64,000 bases of DNA from Bacteriovoracia bacterium (GTDB lineage: Bacteria; Bdellovibrionota; UBA1018; CAIPTA01): the NCBI GenBank assembly GCA_050246755.1, contig JBFWVL010000001.1, forward strand, positions 1,408,001 to 1,472,000, in the 5' to 3' direction. A program made the position numbers and the translations under genes. Positions within the stretch are counted from its first letter, which is position 1; every line of letters begins with the position of its first letter. Shown here in pieces: positions 4,381-32,751 of the stretch. Under the pieces are notes generated by a model that searched no databases, was not told the DNA's origin, and was given only the letters and a program-made list of their open reading frames with translations.

Positions 4381-5346
4381 ATGAACAAGATACCCAAAGA
4401 CCAGCCTTTAATCGTTCTCAGTATTGGGACCAAGATCCTCATGAAGGATGTGATGGACCAGTACCTGCGCAGCTTGGGCGAAGTGAAAACCTATTACGCT
4501 GCCAAAATGAGCATGGCGGTGGAAAGCTTCCGCGAAAAAAAGCCAAATATCATTTTTTGCGAGCAGGCATTTGGCGAAGGCAGCGCTCTCGAGCTGATCC
4601 GGCAAATCGGTGGCCTTCCCCAGTCGGGGGACCAGTACTTCGTGCTGGCTACTGAGCAGAGCTCAGACGAGCTCATGGCCCTTTCGGCTGAAGAAGGAAT
4701 CGACGAAATTCTGGTGAAGCCTTTTTCCACCGAAACAATTCACCAGATAGTGGAGCGCTATTTCGATAAAAAGTCGGCCGCTGATCTGGATTGGATCAAA
4801 GATTTAAGGATGGCCAGGAAATCGTTCGAAGAAAAGCGCTTTCAGGAATCCGACGAGCTCTTCGGGGCCGCGGCCCGCAAATACGCGCAAAATATCAACG
4901 TGCAGCTCGAGTGTTCCGCGCATTTTCTCGAGCGCGGAAATGCGGAGCGAGCGGAAAAGCTCGTACAGTGGGTAATAGAAACTTCAATGGAAAACCCACG
5001 CGCCCTGCAACTTGCGGGGATGGCGCTGAAAAAGCTCGGCCGTTTCCGCGAAGCGGTGGACCGGTTTCGCCGCGCCGACAAGCTGAGCCCGCTCAATAGC
5101 ATCCGTCACGCCGAGCTGGCTGAAACGTATATGCTAATGGCGGAAGAACTTGTTCAGGCGGCGCTAAAGAGCGAGAACGAGAGCTCCACCCTTATCCTTA
5201 AGAAGGCCAAGCTGCACCTAATGCGCAATGACTATGCGGGAGTGGTAACTTACCTCGATGCAAAACGCGCTTTTCTGAGTGAAGCCGGAAAAAAAGAAGC
5301 GGACGCATACACTGCATTAGCGAAAAAACTCGGTGGCTTTAAGTAG
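4381..5346 (+). CDS. Atypical receiver domain plus TPR-like protein
   Basis: REC-like N-terminus (IIFCE, ILVKPF) followed by helical TPR-like repeats. Confidence 0.75.
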   Translation: MNKIPKDQPLIVLSIGTKILMKDVMDQYLRSLGEVKTYYAAKMSMAVESFREKKPNIIFCEQAFGEGSALELIRQIGGLPQSGDQYFVLATEQSSDELMALSAEEGIDEILVKPFSTETIHQIVERYFDKKSAADLDWIKDLRMARKSFEEKRFQESDELFGAAARKYAQNINVQLECSAHFLERGNAERAEKLVQWVIETSMENPRALQLAGMALKKLGRFREAVDRFRRADKLSPLNSIRHAELAETYMLMAEELVQAALKSENESSTLILKKAKLHLMRNDYAGVVTYLDAKRAFLSEAGKKEADAYTALAKKLGGFK

Positions 5347-6157
5347 GGCTTAGTTTCAAAATCTGGCGGGCCTCGGCCGGGCTCGCCACTTCTCGCTGCA
5401 GCAAGCGGGAAAGATCGGCGATCCGCTTCACGAGCTGCGCATTGCTCTCGGCCAGCACTCCCTTGGAGAAATACAAATTATCTTCGAATCCTACGCGCAC
5501 GTGCCCGCCGCTGACGATCGCGAGCGGCGCCACCTGCAGCTGAAATCGCCCTACGCCCGCCACCGCGAAGGTGGATCCTGTGGGAAGCTTAGATTTCATG
5601 TGAAACAAATTTTCTGGCGCGCCGGAAATACCGTGCTTGGTTCCCAACACGAATTGAAAATGGGCGGGCTCGGCGATCACGCCACTCTTAACGAGGCTCA
5701 CCCCGTATTCCAGCATGCCTAGATCGTAGACTTCGATTTCCGGCTTAATATTTAATTTCTTCATCGCGGAGGCGAGGGCTTCTACGTCTTTGGGAAGATT
5801 TTCGAATACTTCGTCGCCGAAATTAATCGAGCCCACGTTTAGCGAAGCCATCTCGGGCTTAAGATTCAAGGGAGCGAGGCGTTCCGAAACGGGAGTGCCC
5901 ACGGCGCCGCCGGTGGAGTATTGCAAAATTAAATCGCAGCGATCGCGGATCAGCTTACTCACCTTGGCGAAAAGTTCCGATGATTGGCTCGGTTTTTCTT
6001 TATCATCGCGCACGTGCAGGTGCACAATCGCGGCGCCGGCCTGCCAGCAGGCGTAGGCGGCCTCGGCCTGTTCCTCGGGAGAGCAGGGCAATTTCGGGTT
6101 CATGGCTTTCGTGGTTTCCGCACCCGTGATGGCGGCGGTAATAATCAGTTTCGACAT
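5339..6157 (-). CDS. kce: 3-keto-5-aminohexanoate cleavage enzyme (BKACE/DUF849)
   Basis: IITAAITGAE, HLHVR, STGG, GHVRVGFEDN motifs; lysine-pathway context. Confidence 0.93.
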   Translation of the reverse strand: MSKLIITAAITGAETTKAMNPKLPCSPEEQAEAAYACWQAGAAIVHLHVRDDKEKPSQSSELFAKVSKLIRDRCDLILQYSTGGAVGTPVSERLAPLNLKPEMASLNVGSINFGDEVFENLPKDVEALASAMKKLNIKPEIEVYDLGMLEYGVSLVKSGVIAEPAHFQFVLGTKHGISGAPENLFHMKSKLPTGSTFAVAGVGRFQLQVAPLAIVSGGHVRVGFEDNLYFSKGVLAESNAQLVKRIADLSRLLQREVASPAEARQILKLSPT

Positions 6158-6163
6158 CACTCT

Positions 6164-6202: not shown

Positions 6203-6916
6203 CTACCGGATAATTTCGTGCACCAGGGAGTAGAGTGCCTTTGGTAAATGCTCGAGCTGGGCCACGCGCACGTATTGCCCGCGGCCCTGGCGGGCAAGGT
6301 TGCGGCAAAACCGGGTGCTTGCCCAGGGATTGCCCGTTTGCACCATATGTAGGCGCGGCAATCGCGGAACGATATGTTCTGGATTTTTCCCGGCCGTAAA
6401 CCTGCCGTCGGTCATGAGAATCACGGCTTTCTTGGGTAGTTTTCCTGAGGCGGCTTCTTTTTCGGCTTCGATCAGCCCCGCTTCGATATTGGTGAGGCCG
6501 CGTGCCGGAACCTCCATGAATTTCTCGAGAATTTGGTAGATATCCATTTTCACGCCGAGAGGCTTGATCACGGTGGCGTCGGATTCGAAAACCACGACGG
6601 CGAGATCTTCGGGATCGAGCTGCAGGGCAATCACGGCCAGCGCCACCGCATTAATTGCTAATTTTCGCCCCGTCATGGAAAGGCTGGTGTCGAGGCAGAC
6701 AATTACCTCCGCGCGACGGGGTTCTTTTCTCTCCACGATGAGATCTTGCAGCGTGGGATCTTCTTCGAGCGAAGCTTCGAGGTCGAACTCTTCCTGGGGA
6801 TGCAGGTTCCATGCGTCGTTTACCAGAGAATATGGCCTCTGCACGGCCCCCATCACGGCCAGAGCTTTGCGAACAATGGCGCGGATGGCTGCCGCGCGGA
6901 TCTTCGCGCGTTTCAC
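6203..6916 (-). CDS. von Willebrand factor A domain ORF; its frame stays open upstream to 7150 with no start codon
   Basis: MIDAS motif DTSLS, then T in LTNIE and D in LMTDG. Confidence 0.9.
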   Translation of the reverse strand: MKRAKIRAAAIRAIVRKALAVMGAVQRPYSLVNDAWNLHPQEEFDLEASLEEDPTLQDLIVERKEPRRAEVIVCLDTSLSMTGRKLAINAVALAVIALQLDPEDLAVVVFESDATVIKPLGVKMDIYQILEKFMEVPARGLTNIEAGLIEAEKEAASGKLPKKAVILMTDGRFTAGKNPEHIVPRLPRLHMVQTGNPWASTRFCRNLARQGRGQYVRVAQLEHLPKALYSLVHEIIR

Positions 6917-7083
6917 CTCGTCGAGACGTTTCTTGATTTCGTGGTAGTGGAGAGCTTTATCCCAATCGGATTGTGAAAGATTTTCTACGGCCCCATCACC
7001 TTCGTCGGAAAGAATTTCGGGGGGGAAGAATTTTATTTCCGGCTCGGTGGCATCGGAGGGAAGATCGCCGTATTCGAGCTCAA

Positions 7084-7959
7084 TTAACTTGTCCGGCTTT
7101 TTTTTTTGGCTTGTTCGGCGATTTGCTCGATGGCCTTCTGGAATCCCAGCTCAGTTCCTTCTTCGGTAAGCTCCACGCGCGTAGGCAGGGCAAGCAACGC
7201 AGCGCGAATAAAAGACTCCCATTCCCCGCCAAGACTCTGGGCGATATCGTAGATACTGATCGCCGCGCGGATACTGGCGCCGCGCTTGAAGAGCACCGAG
7301 CTTCTAGTGCCACGCACGAGTTGCACGCTCCACTCGAGAAGCTGGTTATCCGCTTTTCCTTTTTCGCGGAAGCTCGAGGCGCGCTGAAGAATACCACGTT
7401 CTTCATTTTCGCTCTGGTAGTGAAGAGAAATGAGCTCAAAGCGATCTAGCAAGGCTTCGCTGAGATGGCTTGTGGCCACGAACTCGCGGGGGTTCTGCGT
7501 GGCGATCACGGTGAAGCCTTCTTTAGCCTTCAAGGTGCCGATACGTGGAATTTCAATTTTGCGTTCATCTAGGGCGGGAAGCAGAACGTTCTGCACGCCC
7601 TCAGGCATCCGGTTAAGCTCGTTGATGAAAAGGATAGAGCCCTTGCGAAGCGCCTGCGCCAACGGGCCGTCGAAATAGGAATCCGCGCCGTAACCTTTTT
7701 TCAGCACGGTAGGAGGATCAAACCAACCGGTGAGTTTTTGTTCGGTATAACGGGAATCCCCGTCTACGCGAATCACTTCCTTGCCCAGTAGCTCCGCCAC
7801 CGCGGCCACCAAGAAGGTTTTTCCTACGCCCACGGGCCCTTCGAGCAAAACATGCTTGCCGGCGCCCACGCAGTGCACGAGGTTTTCCACTTCGCGTTCA
7901 CGGCCTACCAGACCATATTTCTCGTGAAGGGTTTTTAGGATTTGGGCGGCGGACTTCAC
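7084..7959 (-). CDS. MoxR-like AAA+ ATPase
   Basis: Walker A GPVGVGKT, Walker B-like LFINELNR, ATQNP, LSEALLDRF; GTG start at 7959 overlaps the kamE stop (GTGA). Confidence 0.92.
   Translation of the reverse strand: MKSAAQILKTLHEKYGLVGREREVENLVHCVGAGKHVLLEGPVGVGKTFLVAAVAELLGKEVIRVDGDSRYTEQKLTGWFDPPTVLKKGYGADSYFDGPLAQALRKGSILFINELNRMPEGVQNVLLPALDERKIEIPRIGTLKAKEGFTVIATQNPREFVATSHLSEALLDRFELISLHYQSENEERGILQRASSFREKGKADNQLLEWSVQLVRGTRSSVLFKRGASIRAAISIYDIAQSLGGEWESFIRAALLALPTRVELTEEGTELGFQKAIEQIAEQAKKKSRTS
7098..7107 (-). other. A10 slippery run, candidate -1 recoding site
   Basis: GCC AAA AAA AAA AGC CGG ACA AGT TAA in frame 0; the -1 frame is open into the vWA ORF. Confidence 0.65.
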
Positions 7960-8765
7960 TTCTTGGCCTTCTTTCGGCGAATCATTTCGTCTACCACGTA
8001 GCTTGCCACATGGGAGGGGAGAGTTCCAGGCCCGAAGCCGGCATCGAGGCCGCACTCGATCGCGGTGGGGTGATTGAGGCGCGGGCCTCCCGCTACGAAA
8101 ATAAATCTCTCGCGCAGCCCCTGCTTCTCGGCGAGCGCCATGAGATTTTTTAGATTATCGATGTGGCAGTCTTTTTCGTCCACGATCTGGGAAACTAGGA
8201 TCGCATCGGCATCGGTTTCTACCGCGATCTTCAGAAGATCTTCGTTCAGAACCTGCGCGCCTAGATTGCGCGCATCGAATCCTGAATAGCGCTCGAGGCC
8301 ATAGTCGCCCTTATAGCCCTTCATGTTGAAAATCGCGTCGATGCCCACGGTATGGGCGTCGAACCCAGTGGTGGCGCCGAGGATCACGATCTTGCGTTTG
8401 ATTTCCTTTTTAATGAGATCGTTAATCTCGTAGAAGCTCTTGAACTCGGTTTCCACTTTCAGCACGTGAATTTTGGTGAAATCCACGGAGTGCGTAGTGG
8501 CACCGTAGGCCACGTAAAAGCTGAATCCCTCGGAAGGCTTTTCCATCGCCACCACTTTGATGTCTTGGAATCCCATCTTACGCATAAACTCCCGCGCGGC
8601 CTCCTCGGCCTCGGGGGAGGGGTTGAGCGGCAGGGTGAAAGAAACCTGCATGCGCCCATCGTTCATGGCGTCGCCGTAAGGTTTAATATTTTTCAGGTCC
8701 ACCATCTTTACGGAGGGATGGTCGGGAGCGCCATATGGAAGAAATTGGGTTTCTTTCTTATCCAT
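7956..8765 (-). CDS. kamE: Lysine 5,6-aminomutase beta subunit (B12-binding)
   Basis: KPYGDAMNDGRMQVSFTLP dimerisation domain, DAHTVG B12 motif, NMKGY PLP lysine; ATG at 8765 overlaps the kamD end. Confidence 0.95.
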   Translation of the reverse strand: MDKKETQFLPYGAPDHPSVKMVDLKNIKPYGDAMNDGRMQVSFTLPLNPSPEAEEAAREFMRKMGFQDIKVVAMEKPSEGFSFYVAYGATTHSVDFTKIHVLKVETEFKSFYEINDLIKKEIKRKIVILGATTGFDAHTVGIDAIFNMKGYKGDYGLERYSGFDARNLGAQVLNEDLLKIAVETDADAILVSQIVDEKDCHIDNLKNLMALAEKQGLRERFIFVAGGPRLNHPTAIECGLDAGFGPGTLPSHVASYVVDEMIRRKKAKK

Positions 8766-10350
8766 AATCTTTAGCCTCCAAGCGATCGAGCATGGGGTTG
8801 ATATACCCATCTTCACGGTTGAAAACCCCTTTATAGCCCTTGCCGCCATCGATCTTACGGCTTACTTCGGCGAAGCACTTTTGCTCGATCGCCTTGAAGA
8901 TCCCGATTTTATCGATGTGGCGCAAGAGTTTCACGGAATCGTCGAGAACTTTCTGGGCCCACTTCTCGATCTTCCCGCCCTTTTTGTAAATGATCTCTTC
9001 GCCGAGGTGCTCGGCGCCGCCGAAAATATAGTTGCAGCTCTTGAGCGCCATGAAACGATCTCCGAGCAAGGGCGTATGGATAGCTTCGGTGGGCATGCCA
9101 AGCAGGTGGATTCCCTGATTCGTCATCACGCTCACGAGATTGAACATCGCGTCGTACACGTGGCTGAAATGAATATCGCCCTCCATGTGGCGGGTGGGGG
9201 GCATATACTTCAGGGGGGCCTTGGGGAAAATATCGCGGGTCATTTGCGCGCGCGCCACCTCGAGGAGAATCACGTCGGGATGAAATGGATTCATCTCCAT
9301 CGCGTGGCCGAGGCCCATATACTCGGGCTTCATATTGGCCGATAGCGCAAAGCGCTCGTTGATGAACTGGGAGGCAAGAACCTGGTGGCCGTTTTCCACG
9401 GCGTCGGCGGTGGTGAGGTAGTTGTCTTCGCCGGTATTGATGAAAATTTCCGATAGCGCGCATACCAGCCGCGAAAAATGCTGGTCGATCAGAGTGCGCT
9501 TCATGTTGATGTCGCGAAAAAGAATCCCATAGAGTGAATCGCACAATAAAAAATCTAGGCGTTCCTGCGCGGCGATCGAAGCGATTTCCGGCATGCAGAG
9601 GCCCGAAGAATAGTTCGTGAGGCGGATATAACGGCCGAGCTTCAGGCCCTCTTCATCGAGCGCCTTGCGCATGATGCGAAAGTTTTCCTGCGTGGCGTAG
9701 GTGCCGCCAAAGCCTTCCGTGGTTGCGCCATGAGGAACGTAGTCGAGCAAAGATTGCGCGGTGGAGCGGATCACGGCAATTACATCGGCCCCGGCCTGCG
9801 CGGCGGAGCGCGCTTGCACCACATCTTCGAAAATATTGCCCGAAGCTACGATCACGTACTTGAGCGGCGGCTTCCTGAAAGAAACATCATGCGGATCGAT
9901 CAGCTTGCTTTTGAGGCGGTTCCGCTCTTTACGCTTGTCGACCAGCGCCTTGAGCGCCACTTTGGCGAGCGCGTCGGCTTTTTTGAAGATGTCTTTTTCT
10001 TTCGCTACCGGGATTTTGGATAACCGGAATGCACCGTTGGCGCGAATGAGGGTGTCTACCACCTGGGCGGGCGTGGCATTTTGCTGAACGCAGGCATTGG
10101 CCATCCAGAAGGATGCCCCCCGCCCAATGGCGCCGTCTTCTTGCAGCTGATCCACGATCACGTTCGCGATCGGATAATGTTGTTTGATCTGGGGATTGAA
10201 GTAGGCACCGCTTACGCCGAGCAGCCGCAATACGGAACGCTCTGTGGCCACGGTAGAATGCGCGTCGATCACTTCCCGAACGTCTTTGGAAATTTTTACC
10301 GCGATTCGGCGGCAGTCAGCAATTTTTTTTCGGTCAAGGGCGAGCTTCAT
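8758..10350 (-). CDS. kamD: Lysine 5,6-aminomutase alpha subunit
   Basis: VIRSTAQSLLDYVP, GFGGTYATQENFR, NYSSGLCMPEI, KYMPPT. Confidence 0.96.
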   Translation of the reverse strand: MKLALDRKKIADCRRIAVKISKDVREVIDAHSTVATERSVLRLLGVSGAYFNPQIKQHYPIANVIVDQLQEDGAIGRGASFWMANACVQQNATPAQVVDTLIRANGAFRLSKIPVAKEKDIFKKADALAKVALKALVDKRKERNRLKSKLIDPHDVSFRKPPLKYVIVASGNIFEDVVQARSAAQAGADVIAVIRSTAQSLLDYVPHGATTEGFGGTYATQENFRIMRKALDEEGLKLGRYIRLTNYSSGLCMPEIASIAAQERLDFLLCDSLYGILFRDINMKRTLIDQHFSRLVCALSEIFINTGEDNYLTTADAVENGHQVLASQFINERFALSANMKPEYMGLGHAMEMNPFHPDVILLEVARAQMTRDIFPKAPLKYMPPTRHMEGDIHFSHVYDAMFNLVSVMTNQGIHLLGMPTEAIHTPLLGDRFMALKSCNYIFGGAEHLGEEIIYKKGGKIEKWAQKVLDDSVKLLRHIDKIGIFKAIEQKCFAEVSRKIDGGKGYKGVFNREDGYINPMLDRLEAKDYG

Positions 10351-11395
10351 AGAGGGATTGTAAGATTGTACGCAGCTCGCCGCTCTCCCGCAAGATGTCG
10401 AGCGTCAGGGCGGCATGTCCCTCGGTATACCCATTTCCGATCACTAACGTTACGTCGGCCCCCACGCCTTCGGCGCCAAGGGCCGCGGCGGAGAAGCTCG
10501 TGGCCATACTGAACAGGTACACGGTGCCTTTATGGCGGGTGGAAAGAATGCTGGCCATTTCGGTGCCGGCCACGTTGGCCACGTTGATCACCAGATCGGC
10601 GCCTTGGCCGCCAAAAGCCGCGCGAATTTTCACTGAAGCCTCTACGGCGTCCCGCGCGTTGCCCTCGATCACTTCGTCCACGAAGGAAAGCTGGCGCAGA
10701 CGCTCTGCGGCCACGGGAGAGTACTCGAAGGCCACTACTTTGCCGGATTTACCGGCCTGCTTTTTTGCTTCGTATAGGCAGAATAAGCCGCTTTTTCCGC
10801 CGCCGCCGATCACGGCCACGTTCATGCCGGGTTTCACGAGCTGCGCGGTTTGGGCGGGGGCGCCTGCCACGTCGAGCGCCGCGAGGGCTAGTCCTTCGTT
10901 GATATCGGCCGGAATCTTGGCGGCGATTCCGCTATTGAACAAAATGGCGTGTCCCTCCACTTCCACTCGTTCGATCTCGGGCAGAACTTTTTTAATGCGC
11001 GTGATTTTGAGGGGGGTGAGGGTAAGGGAAACGAGCGTGGCGATTCGGTCTCCCGCTTTAAAATTTTTGAAGTCGGGATTGGTGATATTGGCGCCCACTT
11101 GCTTTACGGTGCCGATCAGCATCCCTCCCGATCCCGTTACAGGATTTTGCAGCTTGCCGCGATTGCGGATCACTTCGAGAATAGCGGCGCCGGTGCGTTC
11201 GGCGTCTTTGTCGTTGGCGCCGTAGAATTGGTGAAAACTGGCGGAATCCACATTGAGGGAAGAAACCTCGATCAAGATCTCTTCCGCGCTGGCCGGGAGC
11301 TCGGCATCGAGGCGCTGGGCCTGTTGCGGAAGAACGCCCTTGGGTTCGAGCACGCGATGGATTCCTAAGTGAAGCTTAGGATCAAGCGCGGGCAC
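10334..11395 (-). CDS. kdd: L-erythro-3,5-diaminohexanoate dehydrogenase
   Basis: GIHRVLEPKGVLPQ, GKLQNPVTGSGGM, ATLVSLTLTPL, LDVAGAPAQ, AALGAEGVG; GTG at 11395 follows AGGAGG. Confidence 0.94.
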   Translation of the reverse strand: MPALDPKLHLGIHRVLEPKGVLPQQAQRLDAELPASAEEILIEVSSLNVDSASFHQFYGANDKDAERTGAAILEVIRNRGKLQNPVTGSGGMLIGTVKQVGANITNPDFKNFKAGDRIATLVSLTLTPLKITRIKKVLPEIERVEVEGHAILFNSGIAAKIPADINEGLALAALDVAGAPAQTAQLVKPGMNVAVIGGGGKSGLFCLYEAKKQAGKSGKVVAFEYSPVAAERLRQLSFVDEVIEGNARDAVEASVKIRAAFGGQGADLVINVANVAGTEMASILSTRHKGTVYLFSMATSFSAAALGAEGVGADVTLVIGNGYTEGHAALTLDILRESGELRTILQSLYEARP

Positions 11396-12434
11396 GCTCC
11401 GCCTCCTGCACCCGCTCTTCGGCCATGCGGTTTGCCACGGTATTGGTAGGCAGTTTTTCTTGCTGCGAGCGCGCGATAATGTTTTTGATCGTGTCGTAGA
11501 TTTTGGCCACGTGAGCGTAGGCACGGTCGCGGTTATAGCCTTCGCGCTCGTGGTAAATATTGATCAGGCCGCCCGCATTAATGGCGTAGTCGGGGGCGTA
11601 GATAATTCCCTTTTTCAAAAGCTCTTCCCCGTCTTTTTCGGTGGCCAACTGATTGTTCGCGGCCCCCGCCACCACTTTGCATTTCAGGCGCGGCATGGTT
11701 TGGTTATTGATGATCGCTCCGAGGGCGCCGGGGCTGAAAATATCGCAAGCCACGTCGTAGACGGCCTCCGGGTTCACCACTTCGATATTGAATTCCTTGC
11801 GCGCGCGTTCCACGCTCTCGGGATTGATATCGCAGCCGGTAACTTTGGCGCCTTCCTGGTGGAGGTATTTTAAGAGGTAGTAATTTACGGCCCCTAGGCC
11901 CTGCAGGGTAATGTGCAGGCCCTTGAGGGATTTTTCCCCGAAGGCTTTTTCTGCGCAGGCGAGCATGCCGTTATATACACCCCACGCCGTTACGGGGGAT
12001 GGGTCTCCGCTGGAATTAGTTTCGCCGGCGATGCCGAGAATATGGGAAGTCTTGCTCTTGATCGTTTTCAGGTCACTAGAATCGATCCCGACGTCTTTGG
12101 CGGTGATGTAGTTACCTTTGAGGGTTTCCACGAAATCGCCAAAACGCCGCAGGAGCTCGGGAGTTTTTTGCGAAACGTCACCGATGATGATGCTTTTCCC
12201 GCCCCCCAGGGGAAGGTTTGAAATCGAGGCTTTGTACGTCATGCCCTTGGAGAGGCGCAAAACATCGGTGATGGCTTCGTCTTCATTGCGGTAATTCCAC
12301 ATACGGCAGCCACCAGTGGCCGGGCCTAAAGCAGTATTGTGGAGGGCGATAATGGCCTTTAGGCCCACTTTAGAGTCGTTGCAGAACACGATTTGTTCGT
12401 AATTATCTGCCTTAATTTTCTCAAAAACGCTCAT
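11382..12434 (-). CDS. Glu/Leu/Phe/Val dehydrogenase (leucine dehydrogenase-like)
   Basis: GPATGGCR, GMTYK, GGGKS, GDPSPVTAWGV, GAANNQL, PDYAINAGG. Confidence 0.93.
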   Translation of the reverse strand: MSVFEKIKADNYEQIVFCNDSKVGLKAIIALHNTALGPATGGCRMWNYRNEDEAITDVLRLSKGMTYKASISNLPLGGGKSIIIGDVSQKTPELLRRFGDFVETLKGNYITAKDVGIDSSDLKTIKSKTSHILGIAGETNSSGDPSPVTAWGVYNGMLACAEKAFGEKSLKGLHITLQGLGAVNYYLLKYLHQEGAKVTGCDINPESVERARKEFNIEVVNPEAVYDVACDIFSPGALGAIINNQTMPRLKCKVVAGAANNQLATEKDGEELLKKGIIYAPDYAINAGGLINIYHEREGYNRDRAYAHVAKIYDTIKNIIARSQQEKLPTNTVANRMAEERVQEAERARA

Positions 12435-12734: not shown

Positions 12735-12827
12735 CGCACTACCACAAGGCGATGTGTCTGGAGACCCAAGTGCCCCTTGCGGATAGTTTTTCGCAACGAC
12801 CAACGAACGAGAAGAGTGGAGATAGCT

Positions 12828-14474
12828 ATGATGTATAGCAAACAAGAGAAGCAAGCGTTTCAGCTGATCGCAGCCGCAGTCCTCTTAGGAATTTTTTCTT
12901 TAAATCCGATGGCGCGAGCCGCCGACGATGCTGCCGATGCAGTACGGGTAGAGAAAGCACAAGAGCCTCGCGAAGTGGCGTACGAGCCAGAAGAGCGTGA
13001 CGGAATCAGCCTCAAAGAATTCAACAGAATGCTTCGCGAGCCCCTCCAGGTGAGGCCGAACGAAACGAATACGGACGTAGACTTCCTCGGTGATATTCCT
13101 GCCCGCTGCGTGTACGACAAGCAAGGCGAGATGACCGCCAGCATCGACTACGATACCGATGCCAGCACCAAAGACCGTCACGTGTTTCGCGTGCACGTTC
13201 CTCTTTGCGAAAATATCCCTAACTTTAAGCGTAAGCCCGGCGAAAAAATGGTGAAAGTATCCACTATTCCCGGCGCACGTAAGCTTAAAGACGTGAAGGG
13301 CAAAGTAGTGCTCGCCAGCGGATTTAAAGATTCCGACTCCAAGCCTACGATTGAAGAATTGAAGCACGAAGGCAAAGCGATCGAAATCGCTTCCGACGAT
13401 TTCCAGCGCATGGCCGAGCAAGCTGCAATGAGCGAAGCTGCCCAGAAGCAATTGGCTGCCCGCGAAGAATCCGACCGTAAGGCCGCCATCGCGCAAGAGA
13501 AGGCAGATAATATTCGCCTGCAAAAACAAGCCGAGCTCCAGTGCAAAGAAGGCGACTTCGTTGCTCTCGATAAGACTTTCGATGCTATTCCTGAATTGAA
13601 AGAACACGTTGGCAGCTGGGGACAAAAGAAGCTTCTCGCGGCCATCGACAATGCCGAAACCGCCGACGAAGCCCGCGATGCTTTCGAAGCCTATAATAAC
13701 GCCGCTGACTCTCTTGGCTGGGAACGTGCCGATATGCGCAAAGCCTCCGAGAAATACTCCGAGAAGCGTATGTCGCTCATCAACGCCGCGATTTCCGACC
13801 TGCAAGGCGGAGGCGAAGGCAGCTTGAAGGACGCCGAGAAAATGGTGGACGAATGGGCCGCTGAATTCAAAGGCTTCGATAGCAAAGCTAAGAAAAAAGG
13901 CAAAGATGACCTAGCGGTTGCTTACGGAAACCTCGGCGCCATCGCGCAGAATGGTTCCAAGAAGAACGCGAAAGCTATCGCCCAAACGGTTGCTTCTACC
14001 GAGAAGCTCTACAAAAAGGCGAAGAAGTACGCCAACGCTTCCGATAAGAACAATATCGAAGGCGCCCTCGCTAAGCTGAACGGCCAAGCCTTCACGGCCT
14101 GCGTGAAAGCCGATCCCGCTCACATGGCAGCGTGCGAAAGCAAATACCGCGAGAAAACCAAGACCCATAGCGAGAACTACGCTACTGGCCTAGCTCAAAA
14201 AGCGAAGAACGGCGACGAAGAAGCCGCGGCCGAAGTTCAAGCCTTCGCCCAAGATTTCCTCAAGGCCGAAGGTTACGGACAATCGATGAACTACGCTGGT
14301 TTCGGAACCTTGCACCAAATGCCTGGTTTCTTCGAGCAGACCAAGATGCAGTCGCTGCAGGAAATGCAGATGCGCGCCTACCAACAGCAAATGAGCCAAA
14401 TGTACGGCGGCATGGGAATGGGAATGGGTATGGGCGCCGGAATGCAGCAGCGCACCTCGTTCTTCGGCTTCTAA
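12828..14474 (+). CDS. Hypothetical secreted helical protein with Gln/Met/Gly-rich C-terminus
   Basis: Signal peptide ending ARA, long Ala/Lys/Glu-rich ORF, GGAG upstream, followed by a terminator. Confidence 0.85.
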   Translation: MMYSKQEKQAFQLIAAAVLLGIFSLNPMARAADDAADAVRVEKAQEPREVAYEPEERDGISLKEFNRMLREPLQVRPNETNTDVDFLGDIPARCVYDKQGEMTASIDYDTDASTKDRHVFRVHVPLCENIPNFKRKPGEKMVKVSTIPGARKLKDVKGKVVLASGFKDSDSKPTIEELKHEGKAIEIASDDFQRMAEQAAMSEAAQKQLAAREESDRKAAIAQEKADNIRLQKQAELQCKEGDFVALDKTFDAIPELKEHVGSWGQKKLLAAIDNAETADEARDAFEAYNNAADSLGWERADMRKASEKYSEKRMSLINAAISDLQGGGEGSLKDAEKMVDEWAAEFKGFDSKAKKKGKDDLAVAYGNLGAIAQNGSKKNAKAIAQTVASTEKLYKKAKKYANASDKNNIEGALAKLNGQAFTACVKADPAHMAACESKYREKTKTHSENYATGLAQKAKNGDEEAAAEVQAFAQDFLKAEGYGQSMNYAGFGTLHQMPGFFEQTKMQSLQEMQMRAYQQQMSQMYGGMGMGMGMGAGMQQRTSFFGF

Positions 14475-14542: not shown

Positions 14543-16120
14543 CTAGAAAACGGTGGTAGCCGTAAACGAGAGGGCGGTCACGGTATTCGCGGGATTTTGC
14601 TTCGAAGCGCTATTCACGTACTTGAAGTAATCGCCGGGGAAAAGCATACCGAGGTCGGCGCCAAAAGAGATATTGTCGTCCCAGTTATAGCGAGTGCCGA
14701 TATCGGCCTCGATACCCAGATTATCACTCTGGTCCGCCACGGAGGTGAAATAGGTGCGGGTGCGGTGGTTATATACGTCTTTGCCGGCCTTGGCGGTTTG
14801 ATTGGCTTTTGCCCAAACTAAGCCGAAGTTCAATCCCCACTGTTCCCAGCGTTTTTCGGAAGAAAGCATCACGTATTTCGCATTGGTGATGGCGGCGTCG
14901 TAGGGTGAAACCGTGGCGGGATTCACCGCGCCCACGCCCGGAGCTGCCGCGGTGCCAGCGGTATTTACGGGAATCGGATCCGGATTCACGGCGCCGAAAT
15001 TGCCGAGATTATAATTGAATAAAATCTGCCCAAGCTTGTAGGCCCGGTGGAACTGCATGGCTCCGAAGGCGCGTCCGCGGTTGGCGGCGCCCGAGGTAGT
15101 GGGGGACTGGCCGGGAGCGGAGCCGAATTTTAAGCTGTGCTTCCAGGTATCGTATTTGAGCGCGGTTTCCACGGCGATGGAAGTGGCTTTATAGGTATTG
15201 CGCTCACCTACTCCGTTCACGTCGCCGATCTCGCCGCTGTAGATTGGCAGTTCGGCTCCGAGCTCCACCCGGCGCCAAGATTTTTTAGCGTAGAGGTTGA
15301 GGAGCTTCAGGTTCATTCCGTTAGAGCCGCCAAGGTAGGTGGCTTGACCCCCTGGATAATAGTAGCTGTTCTGCGCGTCGTTTGCGTTGCGTTTATAGTA
15401 GAGCGCGCCGCCCTCGAGGTCTTCCTCGGGGTTTTCGTACTTCAATCCCAAGCCGTAATCGGTCACGTCGTCGGACCCCTGAAGGATCGCGTCGCTGAAG
15501 GGATTGCGGGCCCCAGCCAGGTTGCGGCCCATGGAATTTTTTGCGTAGATCGGCATCAGGCTCAGATAGCCGAATTTCGAAACGAGACGAATCGTGTCCG
15601 AAGTGCTCTGGTAGCGATCGAAAGGGCGATCGCCCGAATTGAAGATCACGCCCAAGCCCCAGTGAAAGGGAGCGCGTCCTACTTGGATGGTACCGAAATC
15701 GGTTTGAACGTCGAGCCATAGGCGGGCCACATTGAGGGTCATGCCGTCTTTCTGCGTGCTGAAAGGATTATTGCGGTCTTCCTGGGGAACTCCACGGCCG
15801 AAAAAACCGTATACGGGATCGCCCACGTTCCATTCGGAGAGAACGATCACGTTGTCGTTCACGAGCGCGCGCGGCTTGAGCTTCATGAACACGCCCGAGT
15901 AGGTGGTGCTCTTTTTCCCTTGGCCGGGAATATATTCGCCGCCGAGGCCGGCGTTGGAATAACCAGGAGAGGTTTTATCCATTTGGTAGTTATGAATGAA
16001 GGTATGATCGGCGCGGAAGTAGCCGGCCCAGTCCAGCGTGAGCGCGGAAGCATTATGCGGGCTGAGTAAAAATGCAAAAGTGATGCCTAGAATGAATTTG
16101 TTTACGAAGCGCTTATTCAT
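14543..16120 (-). CDS. Outer-membrane beta-barrel protein (putative porin)
   Basis: Signal peptide (ASA), GYFR and GRAPFHWGLG, alternating amphipathic strands, terminal Phe; GGAG upstream of ATG 16120. Confidence 0.8.
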   Translation of the reverse strand: MNKRFVNKFILGITFAFLLSPHNASALTLDWAGYFRADHTFIHNYQMDKTSPGYSNAGLGGEYIPGQGKKSTTYSGVFMKLKPRALVNDNVIVLSEWNVGDPVYGFFGRGVPQEDRNNPFSTQKDGMTLNVARLWLDVQTDFGTIQVGRAPFHWGLGVIFNSGDRPFDRYQSTSDTIRLVSKFGYLSLMPIYAKNSMGRNLAGARNPFSDAILQGSDDVTDYGLGLKYENPEEDLEGGALYYKRNANDAQNSYYYPGGQATYLGGSNGMNLKLLNLYAKKSWRRVELGAELPIYSGEIGDVNGVGERNTYKATSIAVETALKYDTWKHSLKFGSAPGQSPTTSGAANRGRAFGAMQFHRAYKLGQILFNYNLGNFGAVNPDPIPVNTAGTAAAPGVGAVNPATVSPYDAAITNAKYVMLSSEKRWEQWGLNFGLVWAKANQTAKAGKDVYNHRTRTYFTSVADQSDNLGIEADIGTRYNWDDNISFGADLGMLFPGDYFKYVNSASKQNPANTVTALSFTATTVF

Positions 16121-16323
16121 GATTCTCCTCTGGGCGGGCATTTTGTGTGCACCGCAAAAACCGCTGCTTTTATTGCATCCATATAAGTCTGTGATTTGGG
16201 TTCAAGTCAAGGTAAAACCCTAGAGTTACGCGCTCCGCGTTGGAGGAATGGCCGCAGCGCGACGAACTTTATTTCGTCGAAAAGGTTTTCGATCTTCCTG
16301 GCGCGTAACGAAGGAGTGCTCAC

Positions 16324-25909: not shown

Positions 25910-26977
25910 GTGTTCAAAAAACTCGAAGCAGTAGAGAGACGATTTGAAGACCTGGAGCGTAAGCTTCAGGATCCTTCTATCAACTCCAATGATATCCGCA
26001 AGCTCTCTAAGGAGCATGCGGATCTGCGTGAGTTGGTGGACACGTACCGTATTTTTAAGCAGACTGAAAAGGATCTGGCTTCCGGCAGAGAACTGATGAA
26101 CGACAGTGATCCCGAGATGCGTGCCGCTGCGAAGGAAGAAATCGTGGCGGCCGAGCAGAAGATCGAGGAGCTCACTAAGCAACTCAATTTCCTCCTGATT
26201 CCCAAAGACCCTAACGACGAGAAAAACGTGGTGCTTGAAGTGCGTGCCGGTGCCGGGGGCGACGAGGCCGGCCTTTTTGCCGCCGAAGTTTTCCGCATGT
26301 ACCAGCGCTATGCCGAGAAACGCGGCTGGCGCGTGGAGGTGCTGAACGTGAGTGGTACCGGAATTGGCGGGCTTAAAGAGGCCACCGCCTTGATTACCGG
26401 AGATAAAGTTTATTCGCGCCTGAAGAACGAAGGTGGCGTGCACCGCGTGCAGCGTGTTCCCGATACGGAAACGCAGGGACGCGTGCACACTTCCACGGCT
26501 ACGGTGGCGGTGCTCACCGAGGTGGAAGAAGTGGACATCCAGATCAATCCGAACGATTTGCGTATCGATGTGATGCGCGCCTCCGGTTCCGGCGGACAAA
26601 GCGTGAACACCACCGATTCCGCCGTGCGCATCGTGCATATTCCCACTGGCACCGAAGTGAAGTGCCAAGATGAGAAAAGCCAAATTAAGAACCGCGATAA
26701 GGCGATGAAAATTCTGCGCGCGCGATTGCACGCGGCTGAACAAGAAAAAATCGACGCCGCGCATTCCGCCGCGCGCCGCTCCATGGTGGGCACCGGCGAC
26801 CGCTCGGAACGGATCCGTACCTATAATTTTCCCCAGAGCCGGCTTACTGATCACCGCATTGGCTTAACCGTGCATAACTTGCCCGATATTATGCAGGGCC
26901 AGATCGATCCGGTGATCGACGCTCTCATTGCCCACTCGCAGGCGGAGCTGCTGAAAAACAGCGCTAGCGTACTTTGA
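25910..26977 (+). CDS. prfA: Peptide chain release factor 1
   Basis: PxT motif (VPDTE), GGQ, RSERIRTYNFPQ. Confidence 0.98.
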   Translation: MFKKLEAVERRFEDLERKLQDPSINSNDIRKLSKEHADLRELVDTYRIFKQTEKDLASGRELMNDSDPEMRAAAKEEIVAAEQKIEELTKQLNFLLIPKDPNDEKNVVLEVRAGAGGDEAGLFAAEVFRMYQRYAEKRGWRVEVLNVSGTGIGGLKEATALITGDKVYSRLKNEGGVHRVQRVPDTETQGRVHTSTATVAVLTEVEEVDIQINPNDLRIDVMRASGSGGQSVNTTDSAVRIVHIPTGTEVKCQDEKSQIKNRDKAMKILRARLHAAEQEKIDAAHSAARRSMVGTGDRSERIRTYNFPQSRLTDHRIGLTVHNLPDIMQGQIDPVIDALIAHSQAELLKNSASVL

Positions 26978-27822
26978 CGATAGCCGACATTTTAAAATCT
27001 ACCCCGAAGCGCAAGCGGAACGAAGCTTTGTGGCTGCTTGAATTTATCCTGAAAAAAAATAGATCCGAGCTTTTGCTGGATGCCGAGCGATCCCTTACGC
27101 CAGGTGAGCGGATAAAGTGGTCGGTGGCTTCGCTGGCCCGCAAGACGGGAAAGCCCCTGCAGTATATCGTGGGCAGCGCTCCGTTCTGGGGCAGGGAGTT
27201 TCGCGTGGGGAAGGGGGTTCTCATTCCCCGGCCCGAAACCGAAATGCTCGTGGAGCTAGCGTTAAATTTATTTTCGAAAGAGGAGGCCGTTAGCGCGCTG
27301 GATATCGGAACTGGTTCGGGTGCGGTCGCGATCACGCTGAAACTCGAGCGACCGGGGTGGAAAATAACCGGAACCGATATTTCGGCTAAGGCCCTAAAAT
27401 TTGCGAAAGAGAATGCCAAGGTATTGGCAGCGAACGTGGAGCTGGCGCGTGCCGATCTTTTTTCGCCCAAGCTGCGAAAAAAAAATTGGTCGCTGGTGAT
27501 CTCCAATCCTCCTTACCTCGATACGCGTAAGGATAAAATTGCTGCCGAAGTAAGGGATTGGGAGCCGCGCTCTGCGCTCGAGCCCGCCCTCAAAGAGAAA
27601 TCAAAAGAAGTGAAAGAGCGGGCCGCCTGGTGCGCGGAAAAAATCCTGCGCGGCTGCGCGGCCGCTAAGCCAAGGTATACGGCGCTCGAGCTCAGTGCGC
27701 GCGTGGCGAAATTGCTCGAAACCCGCTGGCGCACACATGAATCGGTGGCGCGCATTTGGCGTGAGGCCGACCTCGCTGGTAAGAAGCGGTTTTTATTGGT
27801 AGCTTGGAAGCAAGATGCATAA
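26974..27822 (+). CDS. prmC: Release factor glutamine methyltransferase
   Basis: VLIPRPETE, DIGTGSG, NPPY, DLAGKKR; overlaps prfA. Confidence 0.93.
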   Translation: MTIADILKSTPKRKRNEALWLLEFILKKNRSELLLDAERSLTPGERIKWSVASLARKTGKPLQYIVGSAPFWGREFRVGKGVLIPRPETEMLVELALNLFSKEEAVSALDIGTGSGAVAITLKLERPGWKITGTDISAKALKFAKENAKVLAANVELARADLFSPKLRKKNWSLVISNPPYLDTRKDKIAAEVRDWEPRSALEPALKEKSKEVKERAAWCAEKILRGCAAAKPRYTALELSARVAKLLETRWRTHESVARIWREADLAGKKRFLLVAWKQDA

Positions 27823-31375: not shown

Positions 31376-31729
31376 AATTAAGTTCCCAGTTTCTGTCGTC
31401 CCTTTTTTTGGAACTGCTTCCAGAGAAGCAGTTAAATTATGCCCTATTTTACGAGGGTGTTTACGTTCGATTTTCTAAATCCTTCGCTGATTTATTGCGG
31501 TTCAATCTTTCCTGATTTGCCGCTCCAATGATTTGATTTGTGACGTTGCAAGATGGGTTCGATAAAAATCGCGTCGAATTTTCATTCTCTAATATCCGAC
31601 CATACCTTTTTTTATTCTCTTCTATTCTCGTCAGCTCAAAAATAGCCCAGCGCCAAGCCCATTATCCGACAAAAACAATCCGTATTTATACACGCTCTTC
31701 GAAAAAAAAACATTTTCCTACAAAACTAC

Positions 31730-31756
31730 TTAAGCCCCCGCACCGCTCGCCGATTA
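31730..31756 (+). promoter_or_regulatory. Sigma28 (FliA) promoter of flagellin 1
   Basis: TTAAG-N14-GCCGATTA. Confidence 0.75.
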
Positions 31757-31920
31757 GTTCATTGCAGCCACCACAGCGGTTGCACAACTACAGGCCGAGT
31801 TTTCGAAGGGCGTGGGGCCCGGAAAAAATAGAGCGGTAGTTGGACGATGGTTCGCAAGGTAGCGAGTCTTCGAGAGTTGCCACAGGACGGTATAGGCAAT
31901 TATTTGAGGAGCTACTATTT

Positions 31921-32751
31921 ATGGGTCTACGTATTGCAACCAACACCACTTCGATGAACGCTCAAAGAAATTTGGGCATCTCCAACGACAGACAAGCTAA
32001 CACGTTAAACAAACTTTCTAGCGGCGCGCGCATCACCAAAGCCGGTGACGACGCAGCTGGACTCGCGATTTCCGAAAAGTTGAAGGGCAGCATCCGCTCC
32101 ATGCAACAAGCGAATCGCAACGCCAACGATGGTATCTCGCTCATCCAAACGGCTGAGGGTGGTATCAACGAAGTATCTAACATTCTTCTTCGTCTTCGCG
32201 AACTCAGCGTACAAGCTGCTTCCGACACCGTAGGCGATGCAGAACGTAGCTTCACCAACAAAGAATTCCAAGCGCTCAAGGGCGAAGTAGATCGTATCGC
32301 TCAAGTGACGAAATTCAACGGACGCAGCCTGCTTAACGGCAGCGGCGAAACCCTGGATTTCCAAGTTGGTATCGAGAACAGCCCCGAGAACGATCGTCTT
32401 CAGTACGCTACGGCGACCACGGACATCACTCTTGGTAAGCTCGGCCTCTCCGATACCGGCACCATGACCAAGCAAGCCGCCCAAGAGAACCTCTCGAAGA
32501 TCGATAGCGCCATCATGGGCGTGAACGAAAATCGCGCTGGTCTCGGCGCTCTCCAGAACCGCTTGTCTTCGACGGTAAGCAACCTCGGTATCGCTACCGA
32601 GAACTTGGCCGCCGCTAACTCGCGAATCCGCGACGCTGATATGGCTCAAGAGACTTCCGAGTTGACCAAGGCTTCGATTCTCTCGCAAGCTGGTACTGCA
32701 GTGTTGTCGCAAGCCAACTCTAGCCAGAACCTTGCTCTGAAATTGCTCTAA
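31921..32751 (+). CDS. fliC: Flagellin (276 aa, little or no variable domain)
   Basis: MGLRIATN, DDAAGLAIS, GALQNRL, SRIRDAD; GAGGAG before ATG 31921. Confidence 0.97.
   Translation: MGLRIATNTTSMNAQRNLGISNDRQANTLNKLSSGARITKAGDDAAGLAISEKLKGSIRSMQQANRNANDGISLIQTAEGGINEVSNILLRLRELSVQAASDTVGDAERSFTNKEFQALKGEVDRIAQVTKFNGRSLLNGSGETLDFQVGIENSPENDRLQYATATTDITLGKLGLSDTGTMTKQAAQENLSKIDSAIMGVNENRAGLGALQNRLSSTVSNLGIATENLAAANSRIRDADMAQETSELTKASILSQAGTAVLSQANSSQNLALKLL

Follow-up and report, generated by a model that had tools for sequence, protein, structure and literature searches.

Chelatase genes of the chlD type are described as carrying a programmed −1 shift at a poly-A run (PMC3711429, PMC9227772, PMC5009743), and chlD runs of 7, 9 and 11 A's placed in Escherichia coli reporters are reported to give 10, 40 and 63% shift, respectively (PMC3711429). 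The same source describes two poly-A routes for the tau and gamma products of dnaX, namely a frameshift at A_AAA_AAG in E. coli and transcriptional slippage at a run of nine A's (A9) in Thermus thermophilus (PMC3711429). Here we analyse a candidate for a similar device in a 64,000-nucleotide (nt) stretch of the genome of a Bacteriovoracia bacterium (Bdellovibrionota; GenBank assembly GCA_050246755.1, contig JBFWVL010000001.1, positions 1,408,001 to 1,472,000), which we call the window throughout. In it, a run of ten A's (A10) lies close to the 3′ end of a gene for a MoxR-type AAA+ ATPase, and an open reading frame (ORF) for a vWA domain continues from there in the −1 frame. We conclude that the A10 run is very probably a programmed recoding site, from which a single locus would yield the ATPase alone and an ATPase-vWA fusion, a reading that is strongly supported by the comparison of genomes presented below. 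Poly-A −1 recoding is already known from chlD; what is new here is the MoxR-type family, which is only remotely similar, together with different lineages and a different context.

NorD and CbbO, the vWA partners of the ATPases NorQ and CbbQ, are separately encoded, much larger proteins with starts of their own, and midasin (Rea1/MDN1), a eukaryotic protein of about 4,700-4,900 residues, combines six fused AAA modules and one MIDAS domain in the same chain. In the NorQD complex, one NorD finger is described as entering the pore of the NorQ hexamer (PMC13036017), so that one adaptor serves one ring. Our literature search found no description of recoding in NorQ/NorD or CbbQ/CbbO, and none in MoxR-type genes; the supplementary tables of PMC3711429, which hold 146 candidate clusters, may list the family.

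Results

The ATPase and vWA frames meet at a run of ten A's

The ATPase ORF ends GCC AAA AAA AAA AGC CGG ACA AGT TAA on the − strand (Table 1). The vWA frame, which stands at −1 relative to the ATPase frame, is open from 7150 down to its stop at 6203-6205, and the TGA at 7151-7153 and the TAA at 7084-7086 delimit a 67-nt interval for any frame change. Such a change is predicted to join ATPase residues 1-284, the Lys run and the −1 frame into a product of ~585 amino acids (aa). Read as two genes, the same DNA would leave an apparent gap of 167 nt between the ATPase TAA and the GTG at 6916. This layout had been put forward in an earlier reading of the letters alone (hereafter the original prediction), and our analysis bore out its coordinates, namely the GTG start at 7959, the 3′ end quoted above, the A10 run at 7098-7107, and a −1 frame that is stop-free from 7150 to 6203 and has its first ATG, GTG or TTG at 6916. 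It likewise bore out that the 167-nt gap can be read as an acidic, proline-rich linker peptide and that GTG 6916 has no clear Shine-Dalgarno (SD) sequence, there being no well-spaced SD upstream of it.

The original prediction had also called A10 the longest homopolymer noticed, which holds for the window. In the whole genome of 3,546,152 bases it is the sole homopolymer of at least 10 bases, next to 43 runs of nine A's or T's and 4 runs of nine G's or C's. A further concern had been that the true count might be A11. We found the run spanned, with no letter inserted or deleted, by Logan contigs of four public sequencing runs from two studies (contigs cannot show minority variants). Two of the four match the window letter for letter and may be the data from which it was assembled, and two come from diverged relatives, with 15 changes in 376 nt in one contig and 151 changes in 1757 nt in another, the latter from the second study. 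All four agree on A10.

Two further A9 runs occur in the window, one at 27477-27485 within an ORF for a PrmC-like methyltransferase (26974-27822) and one at 31702-31710 within a 99-aa ORF (31540-31839) that lacks a Pfam match and immediately precedes a flagellin gene (31840-32751). Neither shows any sign of an ORF junction.

The run and the frame offset are conserved across lineages

We surveyed 42 non-redundant ATPase/vWA junctions from Bdellovibrionota, Chloroflexota, Sumerlaeota, Abyssobacteria, a 'Deltaproteobacteria' metagenome-assembled genome (MAG) and metagenome contigs. Genomes contributed 26 of these loci, and a metagenome scan gave 20 loci, 18 with a junction, of which two were duplicates. 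The counts leave out L021-L028 (the same DNA as L002-L009), L055 (the same as L032) and L048 (the same as L045), as well as L054 and L057, which end short of the junction, and L035 and L036, which are distant homologues with 28-38% ATPase identity.

A match to the vWA frame was present in 36 of 41 related genomes, and at the 20 loci examined the ATPase was always one frame ahead of the vWA ORF, with an A9 or A10 run always preceding the ATPase stop. In a scan of species-representative genomes, the group consisted of Bdellovibrionota MAGs, and the same layout was found in six more lineages: another Bdellovibrionota (L029, A10), Candidatus Abyssobacteria (L030, A9), Dehalococcoidales (L031, A7), Sumerlaeia (L032, A9), Chloroflexota (L033, A7) and a 'Deltaproteobacteria' MAG (L034, A9).

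An uninterrupted A run lies just 5′ of the ATPase stop in all 42 junctions (A10 in 28, A9 in 8, A8 in 1 and A7 in 5), the base after it being G in 38 and C in 4, and the vWA frame is at −1 in 41 of the 42. The poly-A and the −1 offset that the original prediction had noted at a single locus are thus conserved among homologues in several phyla. The distance from the run to the zero-frame stop is 1-29 nt, and the run starts at position 1, 2 or 3 of the ATPase codon in 25, 8 and 9 junctions, respectively. Since the phase of the run varies while the −1 offset is kept, indels on one side must have been compensated on the other. Restoring the frame by an added A or by a one-base slip back predicts such compensation, whereas two genes translated independently do not. 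In L019 and L030, the stretch that is open in both frames shrinks to 13 nt, little more than the run, which pins the frame change to the run itself. The distant homologues L035 and L036 have no A run; the L035 vWA domain occupies another frame, and the Microbacterium locus L036 encodes an in-frame fusion.

Related proteins include in-frame fusions

The original prediction had raised the possibility of in-frame fusions in other genomes, and these were found. A search for longer proteins containing the ATPase gave 377 hits, and the 120 listed among them are 574-626 aa long and 50-58% identical to the ATPase. They carry AAA_5 and mostly vWA domains, and archaeal MAGs (Thermoplasmata, Nitrososphaerales and others) predominate among their named sources. 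Thirteen of the fusions are collinear with the window ATPase and then with the vWA frame, with a variable linker between the two.

In a quick tree of the ATPase (80 rows, LG+G4), 39 fused forms make up one clade with a support of 95. The only fused pair nested among the split forms, P0121 and P0136 (584 aa, with KKK at the junction), is sister to L052, with a support of 99. The split or fused label changes at least twice on this unrooted tree. A metagenome scan for the A count in the DNA of P0121 and P0136 returned split loci alone. Finally, a profile search of 1.84 billion representatives gave 113 clusters at E <= 1e-30; among the 150 clusters listed, most are short stand-alone calls (150-360 aa), and roughly an eighth have a length of 560 aa or more. 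Judging by these lengths, the split form is probably common.

Codon usage at the run

Outside the run, the share of AAA among the Lys codons of the two ORFs ranges from 9 to 90% across the 26 genome loci. At loci of 62-68% G+C this share is only 9-22%, with AAG at 78-91%, and the run is still intact. Taking the usage of each gene itself, the joint probability of three AAA Lys codons at the 26 loci is 10^-32.7, a value that is not corrected for shared ancestry and so is overstated; synonymous sites between loci are near saturation. The Lys run is mostly absent from the in-frame fusions. In 75 of the 119 examined (of the 120 listed), no KK occurs within 75 residues after a conserved LPTR motif, and KKK occurs in only 13 of the 119. 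Lys residues here are thus no hallmark of the protein family, and the A run must be conserved for something other than the peptide that it encodes.

Evidence for translation of the apparent gap

Over the 60 codons from the run to GTG 6916, comparison of the window with eight relatives in the vWA frame gave a proportion of nonsynonymous differences (pN) of 0.18-0.39 versus a proportion of synonymous differences (pS) of 0.53-0.82, which indicates purifying selection on the predicted linker in that frame, with synonymous sites near saturation. Conserved motifs in the linker region are (I/L)E(Y/F)G(D/E)LP, PE(I/V)KF.PPE and DW(D/E).A.

An independently started vWA gene in homologues was what the original prediction had named as evidence against itself, and in the 26 genome loci we found no conserved start. 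The distance from the run to the first canonical start ranges from 4 to 140 codons and is at least 30 codons in 14 of the 26. Database vWA proteins begin at many different alignment columns and are 216-295 aa long in close relatives. Their commonest start, 'MPD/MPE', coincides with a conserved Leu position encoded in L001-L009 by CTT, TTG (3), CTG (3), CTC or CTA; with codons so varied, the 'M' is a gene-caller reading of TTG and not a conserved start. An AlphaFold model of the vWA frame, based on a 34-sequence alignment, has a mean predicted local distance difference test score (pLDDT) of 81. Its residues 1-60 are disordered, helices at 62-75 and 78-100 reach a pLDDT of about 85-93, and the vWA fold comes after them. 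A start at GTG 6916 would remove the first helix, with its invariant W63 and A66, and GTG 6916 is probably not the real N-terminus of the vWA protein.

At the loci with a TGA stop (L002, L007, L013, L014, L017, L020, L029, L040, L041, L044, L053 and L058), the base before the TGA is almost always C, which makes the overlapping −1 codon CTG and not ATG, GTG or TTG, as read by eye from the junctions. L059 has GTG there, as does L052, whose +1 vWA frame makes it irrelevant. The CTG could be due to avoidance of a canonical start, or simply to base composition.

Possible routes of recoding

If the run is recoded, most expression would end at TAA 7084 and yield the 291-aa MoxR-type ATPase, and a fraction would shift to −1 inside the run and yield the longer protein, in which the ATPase is followed by the disordered acidic linker, the two helices and the vWA/MIDAS domain. 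Going by the chlD reporter rates, a substantial fraction of long product would be expected.

Polymerase slippage and ribosomal −1 frameshifting both fit. Slippage is suggested by run lengths of A9-A10 in 36 of the 42 junctions, longer than a ribosomal heptamer needs, by the free phase of the run and by the lack of RNA structure or an SD-like element. Near the run we found no conserved RNA structure, the consensus fold of nine relatives having −0.2 kcal/mol and 3 pairs, and the window stretch folded with z = −0.32 and showed no SD-like element upstream. Lacking such stimulatory elements, a classical stimulated frameshift is less likely; recoding as such is not made less likely by this. An in-phase A_AAA_AAN heptamer exists at every junction, which is automatic for A9 and above. 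It is also in phase in the A8 run and in all five A7 runs, the latter having p ~0.004 under free phase if the cases are independent, and the genome has a single tRNA-Lys, with anticodon UUU, among the 38 tRNAs found. Together, the in-phase heptamers of the A7 and A8 runs and the single tRNA-Lys (UUU) favour a ribosomal contribution.

We propose that in A9-A10 runs the main route would be slippage of RNA polymerase, adding one A to the transcript, and that a ribosomal −1 shift on the in-phase A_AAA_AAA/G heptamer, via tRNA-Lys (UUU), probably contributes. In A7 members, ribosomal frameshifting would probably be the main route. Taken overall, we place the two routes close to an even split, with a slight lean towards slippage.

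Protein families

The ATPase matches Pfam AAA_5 at 3.2e-25 (89.2 bits against a cut-off of 22) and Mg_chelatase at 27.5 bits, in agreement with the original prediction of a MoxR-like and not a ChlI-like protein. The motif GPVGVGKT, the Walker B sequence INE, and R173 and R226 are near-invariant in its alignment. No NCBIfam equivalog was reached at its cut-off (GvpN 73 versus 266.8 bits), which leaves the ATPase in no named subfamily. Among solved structures, the best sequence matches are midasin AAA modules (167.6 bits in three stretches), followed by NorQ (49.7), MoxR 2r44 (48.3) and CbbQ (33). The vWA part, which is adjacent to the ATPase at all loci, matches Pfam VWA_2 at 4.8e-10 (40.4 bits against a cut-off of 27), and the top Foldseek hits of its model are the vWA domains of NorD in NorQD complexes, with the MIDAS domains of MDN1/Rea1 lower in the list.

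An identity as ChlD/BchD or as a chlD-type cobaltochelatase was considered and rejected. The window ATPase scores 32.5 bits with TIGR02031 and 34.4 bits with TIGR02442, fused relatives score 30-36 bits with BchD-ChlD (cut-off 499.55) and 41-61 bits with Cob-chelat-sub (cut-off 779.45), and no genomic match exceeded the cut-off of TIGR02031 or TIGR02442. CobN/ChlH (PF02514) was not found in the genome to which the window belongs (G000, 95.69% complete), in a search whose control was positive in 5 of 14 genomes.

The same genome holds two more distant MoxR-type ATPase genes, at G000:C5:78307-78876 and G000:C1:1046244-1046837, which are 39% and 32% identical over ~200 residues; one of them has a weak vWA-like match ~2 kb downstream.

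A possible client of the ATPase/vWA module

By analogy with solved relatives, the ATPase domain common to short and long chains would bring them together in a hexameric ring with few tethered vWA arms, and this ring would act in the manner of the NorQ/NorD and CbbQ/CbbO remodelling and cofactor-insertion chaperones. The shift rate may then set the stoichiometry of the ring.

In the window, the pair lies in a lysine-fermentation operon, directly behind the genes of lysine 5,6-aminomutase, kamD and kamE. Among 20 loci of the bacterial class, kamE is directly upstream of the ATPase in 15 and a dehydrogenase gene in 2. A KamD match was obtained in 22 of 41 genomes, and each of the 22 also has the vWA gene, on the contig and strand that carry KamD and separated from it by ~1.7-5.2 kb. 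This proximity hints that KamDE, an enzyme that uses vitamin B12 and pyridoxal phosphate (PLP), is the likeliest client of the module. Two observations count against a general role of this kind, in that 14 of the 36 vWA-bearing related genomes gave no KamD match and the six loci of other lineages have unrelated neighbours and no common partner (hexapeptide transferase, PfkB kinase, Obg, MerR/TipAS regulator, amidohydrolase, DUF2284, M48 peptidase and PHP domain protein). The kamDE link is thus not general, and the pair is a module of wider use that was recruited to the aminomutase operon in this lineage. Our literature search on reactivation of lysine 5,6-aminomutase found nothing, and kamD and kamE returned name collisions only.

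One may go further and imagine a shift tuned to about one long chain per ring, giving a 'mini-midasin' made of a MoxR hexamer and a single covalently tethered MIDAS arm. This would be an ancient, widespread means of setting the 6:1 ratio of motor to adaptor for which NorQ/NorD and CbbQ/CbbO use separate genes, and in Bdellovibrionota it would serve as the missing ATP-dependent reactivating or cofactor-loading factor of B12-dependent lysine 5,6-aminomutase. As a joint proposal, this is speculative and on balance unlikely.

In two relatives (G004 and G027) that gave no KamD match, the dehydrogenase gene that heads the operon in the window is directly upstream of the ATPase (loci L007, L012 and L026).

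The surrounding operon

Pfam and NCBIfam assignments give the gene order kdd, kamD, kamE, ATPase, vWA ORF, kce. The GTG start of the ATPase overlaps the TGA stop of kamE as GTGA. Beside the operon, two ORFs at 12777-14474 (+, 565 aa) and 14543-16141 (−, 532 aa) have no Pfam match at E <= 1e-5.

Table 1 Features of the ATPase/vWA locus and its operon, in window coordinates
Feature	Position	Strand	Comment
MoxR-class AAA+ ATPase, zero-frame ORF, 291 aa	7084..7959	-	start GTG 7959, stop TAA 7086-7084; predicted short product
Walker A GPVGVGKT	7816-7839	-	inside ATPase ORF
A10 run	7098..7107	-	candidate slip site GCC AAA AAA AAA A/GC; in-phase A_AAA_AAA heptamer, next base G
Zero-frame stop TAA	7084..7086	-	11 nt past the run; would terminate the short ATPase product
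TGA, final -1-frame stop before the run	7151..7153	-	upstream of A10
-1-frame coding sequence (linker, two helices, vWA/MIDAS domain)	6203..7107	-	stop 6203-6205; collinear with C-terminal halves of fusions
Linker rich in Pro and acidic residues (19-60 of the 315-aa frame)	6971..7096	-	predicted disordered, pLDDT < ~50; no start codon inside
Two conserved helices, residues 62-75 and 78-100, ahead of the vWA fold	6851..6967	-	W63 and A66 invariant; H70 near-invariant
GTG 6916, first canonical start of the vWA frame	6914..6916	-	residue 79 of the frame; start of the 237-aa database protein P0004 (100% identical)
MIDAS motif DTSLS (D154, S156, S158), completed by T220 and D248	6677..6691	-	columns invariant in 34 sequences
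kamE, lysine 5,6-aminomutase beta subunit	7956..8849	-	NCBIfam NF052385, 345.6 bits (cut-off 280); immediately upstream of ATPase
kamD, lysine 5,6-aminomutase alpha subunit	8758..10350	-	NCBIfam NF052384, 743 bits (cut-off 600)
kce, 3-keto-5-aminohexanoate cleavage enzyme	5339..6160	-	NCBIfam NF052387, 382.3 bits (cut-off 382); immediately downstream of vWA ORF
kdd	10334-11524	-	operon gene upstream of kamD
Amino-acid dehydrogenase gene (Glu/Leu/Phe/Val-dehydrogenase family)	11382-12434	-	operon head; best NCBIfam match tryptophan dehydrogenase ScyB, 394 bits, below cut-off 600

Discussion

Alternative explanations of the junction

Instead of being joined to the ATPase, the vWA protein could be the product of a separate gene, started alone by termination-reinitiation at ATT 7082-7084 or at GTG 6916, with the A run as an A-rich, unstructured leader. 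Stop/start overlaps of the ATGA type likewise give a −1 offset, and ATT 7082-7084 overlaps the TAA stop, so that reinitiation there is possible in principle; of 9 close relatives, 6 have ATT at the equivalent codon and one has GTG. Canonical starts (GTG, TTG or ATG) also occur 4-17 codons past the run in several relatives, which may make a stand-alone vWA protein as well, and gene callers annotate such proteins at the 216-295 aa noted above. A leader, however, need not be an unbroken homopolymer, and yet all 42 are, 36 of them A9-A10, even at 62-68% G+C. Nor is any start conserved, L007 and L002 having GTT or no start of any kind at the equivalent codon, the 'MPD' position being a Leu from five different codons, and the −1 codon that overlaps TGA stops being mostly CTG and not ATG or GTG. 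Initiation at GTG 6916, which lacks a well-spaced SD, would cost the protein a conserved helix, and the in-frame fusions show the joined protein to be a functional form. We consider separate genes improbable on these grounds. The ATT at the stop and the early starts past the run nonetheless weigh against programmed recoding, as do the exception L052, whose A9 comes with a +1 offset (1 of the 42 junctions), and the make-up of the survey, in which some junctions come from close relatives, so that the counts do not represent independent events. L052 (1790-2010 of a metagenome contig) may represent a run-length change in a small clade or a miscounted homopolymer.

Two further explanations place the change in the DNA itself. 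Under phase variation, the run would change its length in replication and switch a plain fusion gene on and off in the population, as befits long homopolymers, which are classic contingency loci; one small clade does show differing states, with L052 at A9 and +1 and its sisters P0121 and P0136 in frame with KKK. Mixed lengths and frames among strains would then be expected, whereas the out-of-frame state is found in 41 of the 42 assembled junctions and A10 is unchanged in the contigs of four sequencing runs, two diverged strains included. The protein is, moreover, cytoplasmic and belongs to a metabolic operon, and we hold phase variation to be very improbable. An assembly or sequencing error that hides a true A11 and with it one plain fusion gene, or a pseudogene left by a recent inactivating frameshift, might be suspected in view of how error-prone homopolymers are and how one added base restores a single ORF. 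The fault would have to recur in 41 independent assemblies, however, with runs of A7, A8, A9 and A10 all one base short; the four sequencing runs from two studies agree; and both ORFs and the linker are under purifying selection across phyla. This explanation is close to refuted, and programmed recoding at the A run is the reading that we retain.

Implications

If this reading is true, the family described here would be a second, distantly related AAA+/vWA family that makes a 'motor' and a 'motor-plus-adaptor' from one gene by a poly-A slip. Two families with the same device would suggest a general answer to the stoichiometry of AAA+ rings and vWA adaptors, and the small, soluble system at hand would make the stoichiometry question testable. 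It would also expose a systematic annotation error, in that the vWA genes of the family are called with arbitrary starts (237 aa here, 216-295 aa in relatives), and would add lysine 5,6-aminomutase, a B12/PLP enzyme, to the candidate clients of MoxR proteins.

Comparison with known systems

The closest likeness is to chlD, for which the cited sources describe one locus giving a short AAA+ protein and a long AAA+-linker-vWA protein, a −1 shift on A_AAA_AAR or a longer poly-A placed after the AAA+ module, in-frame fused versions in other species and RefSeq-style annotation as two adjacent genes. The locus described here differs in that its ATPase is of the MoxR/AAA_5 class and not of the ChlI class, that it lies in a lysine-fermentation operon and elsewhere among varied neighbours, and that its lineages are not among the six genera listed in PMC3711429. 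With dnaX, as described there, it would share a poly-A run by which one gene gives two products, their proportions being regarded as suited to the stoichiometry of a complex, and a mechanism that is ribosomal or polymerase-based depending on the species; in dnaX, however, the shift yields the shorter product, whereas here it would yield the longer one, and the protein families are unrelated.

NorQ/NorD and CbbQ/CbbO resemble the pair in its protein parts, the ATPase matching NorQ, CbbQ and MoxR 2r44 by sequence and the vWA domain matching NorD by fold, with MIDAS residues intact and the two genes adjacent; neither nitric oxide reductase nor Rubisco, however, is in the neighbourhood here. Midasin, finally, which provides the best PDB sequence match of the ATPase and whose MDN1/Rea1 MIDAS domain is among the fold matches of the vWA domain, likewise has an AAA_5-type ring tethered by an acidic linker to a C-terminal MIDAS domain. 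In contrast to that single chain, the ring here would be built of separate protomers, and the number of its MIDAS arms would follow the shift rate.

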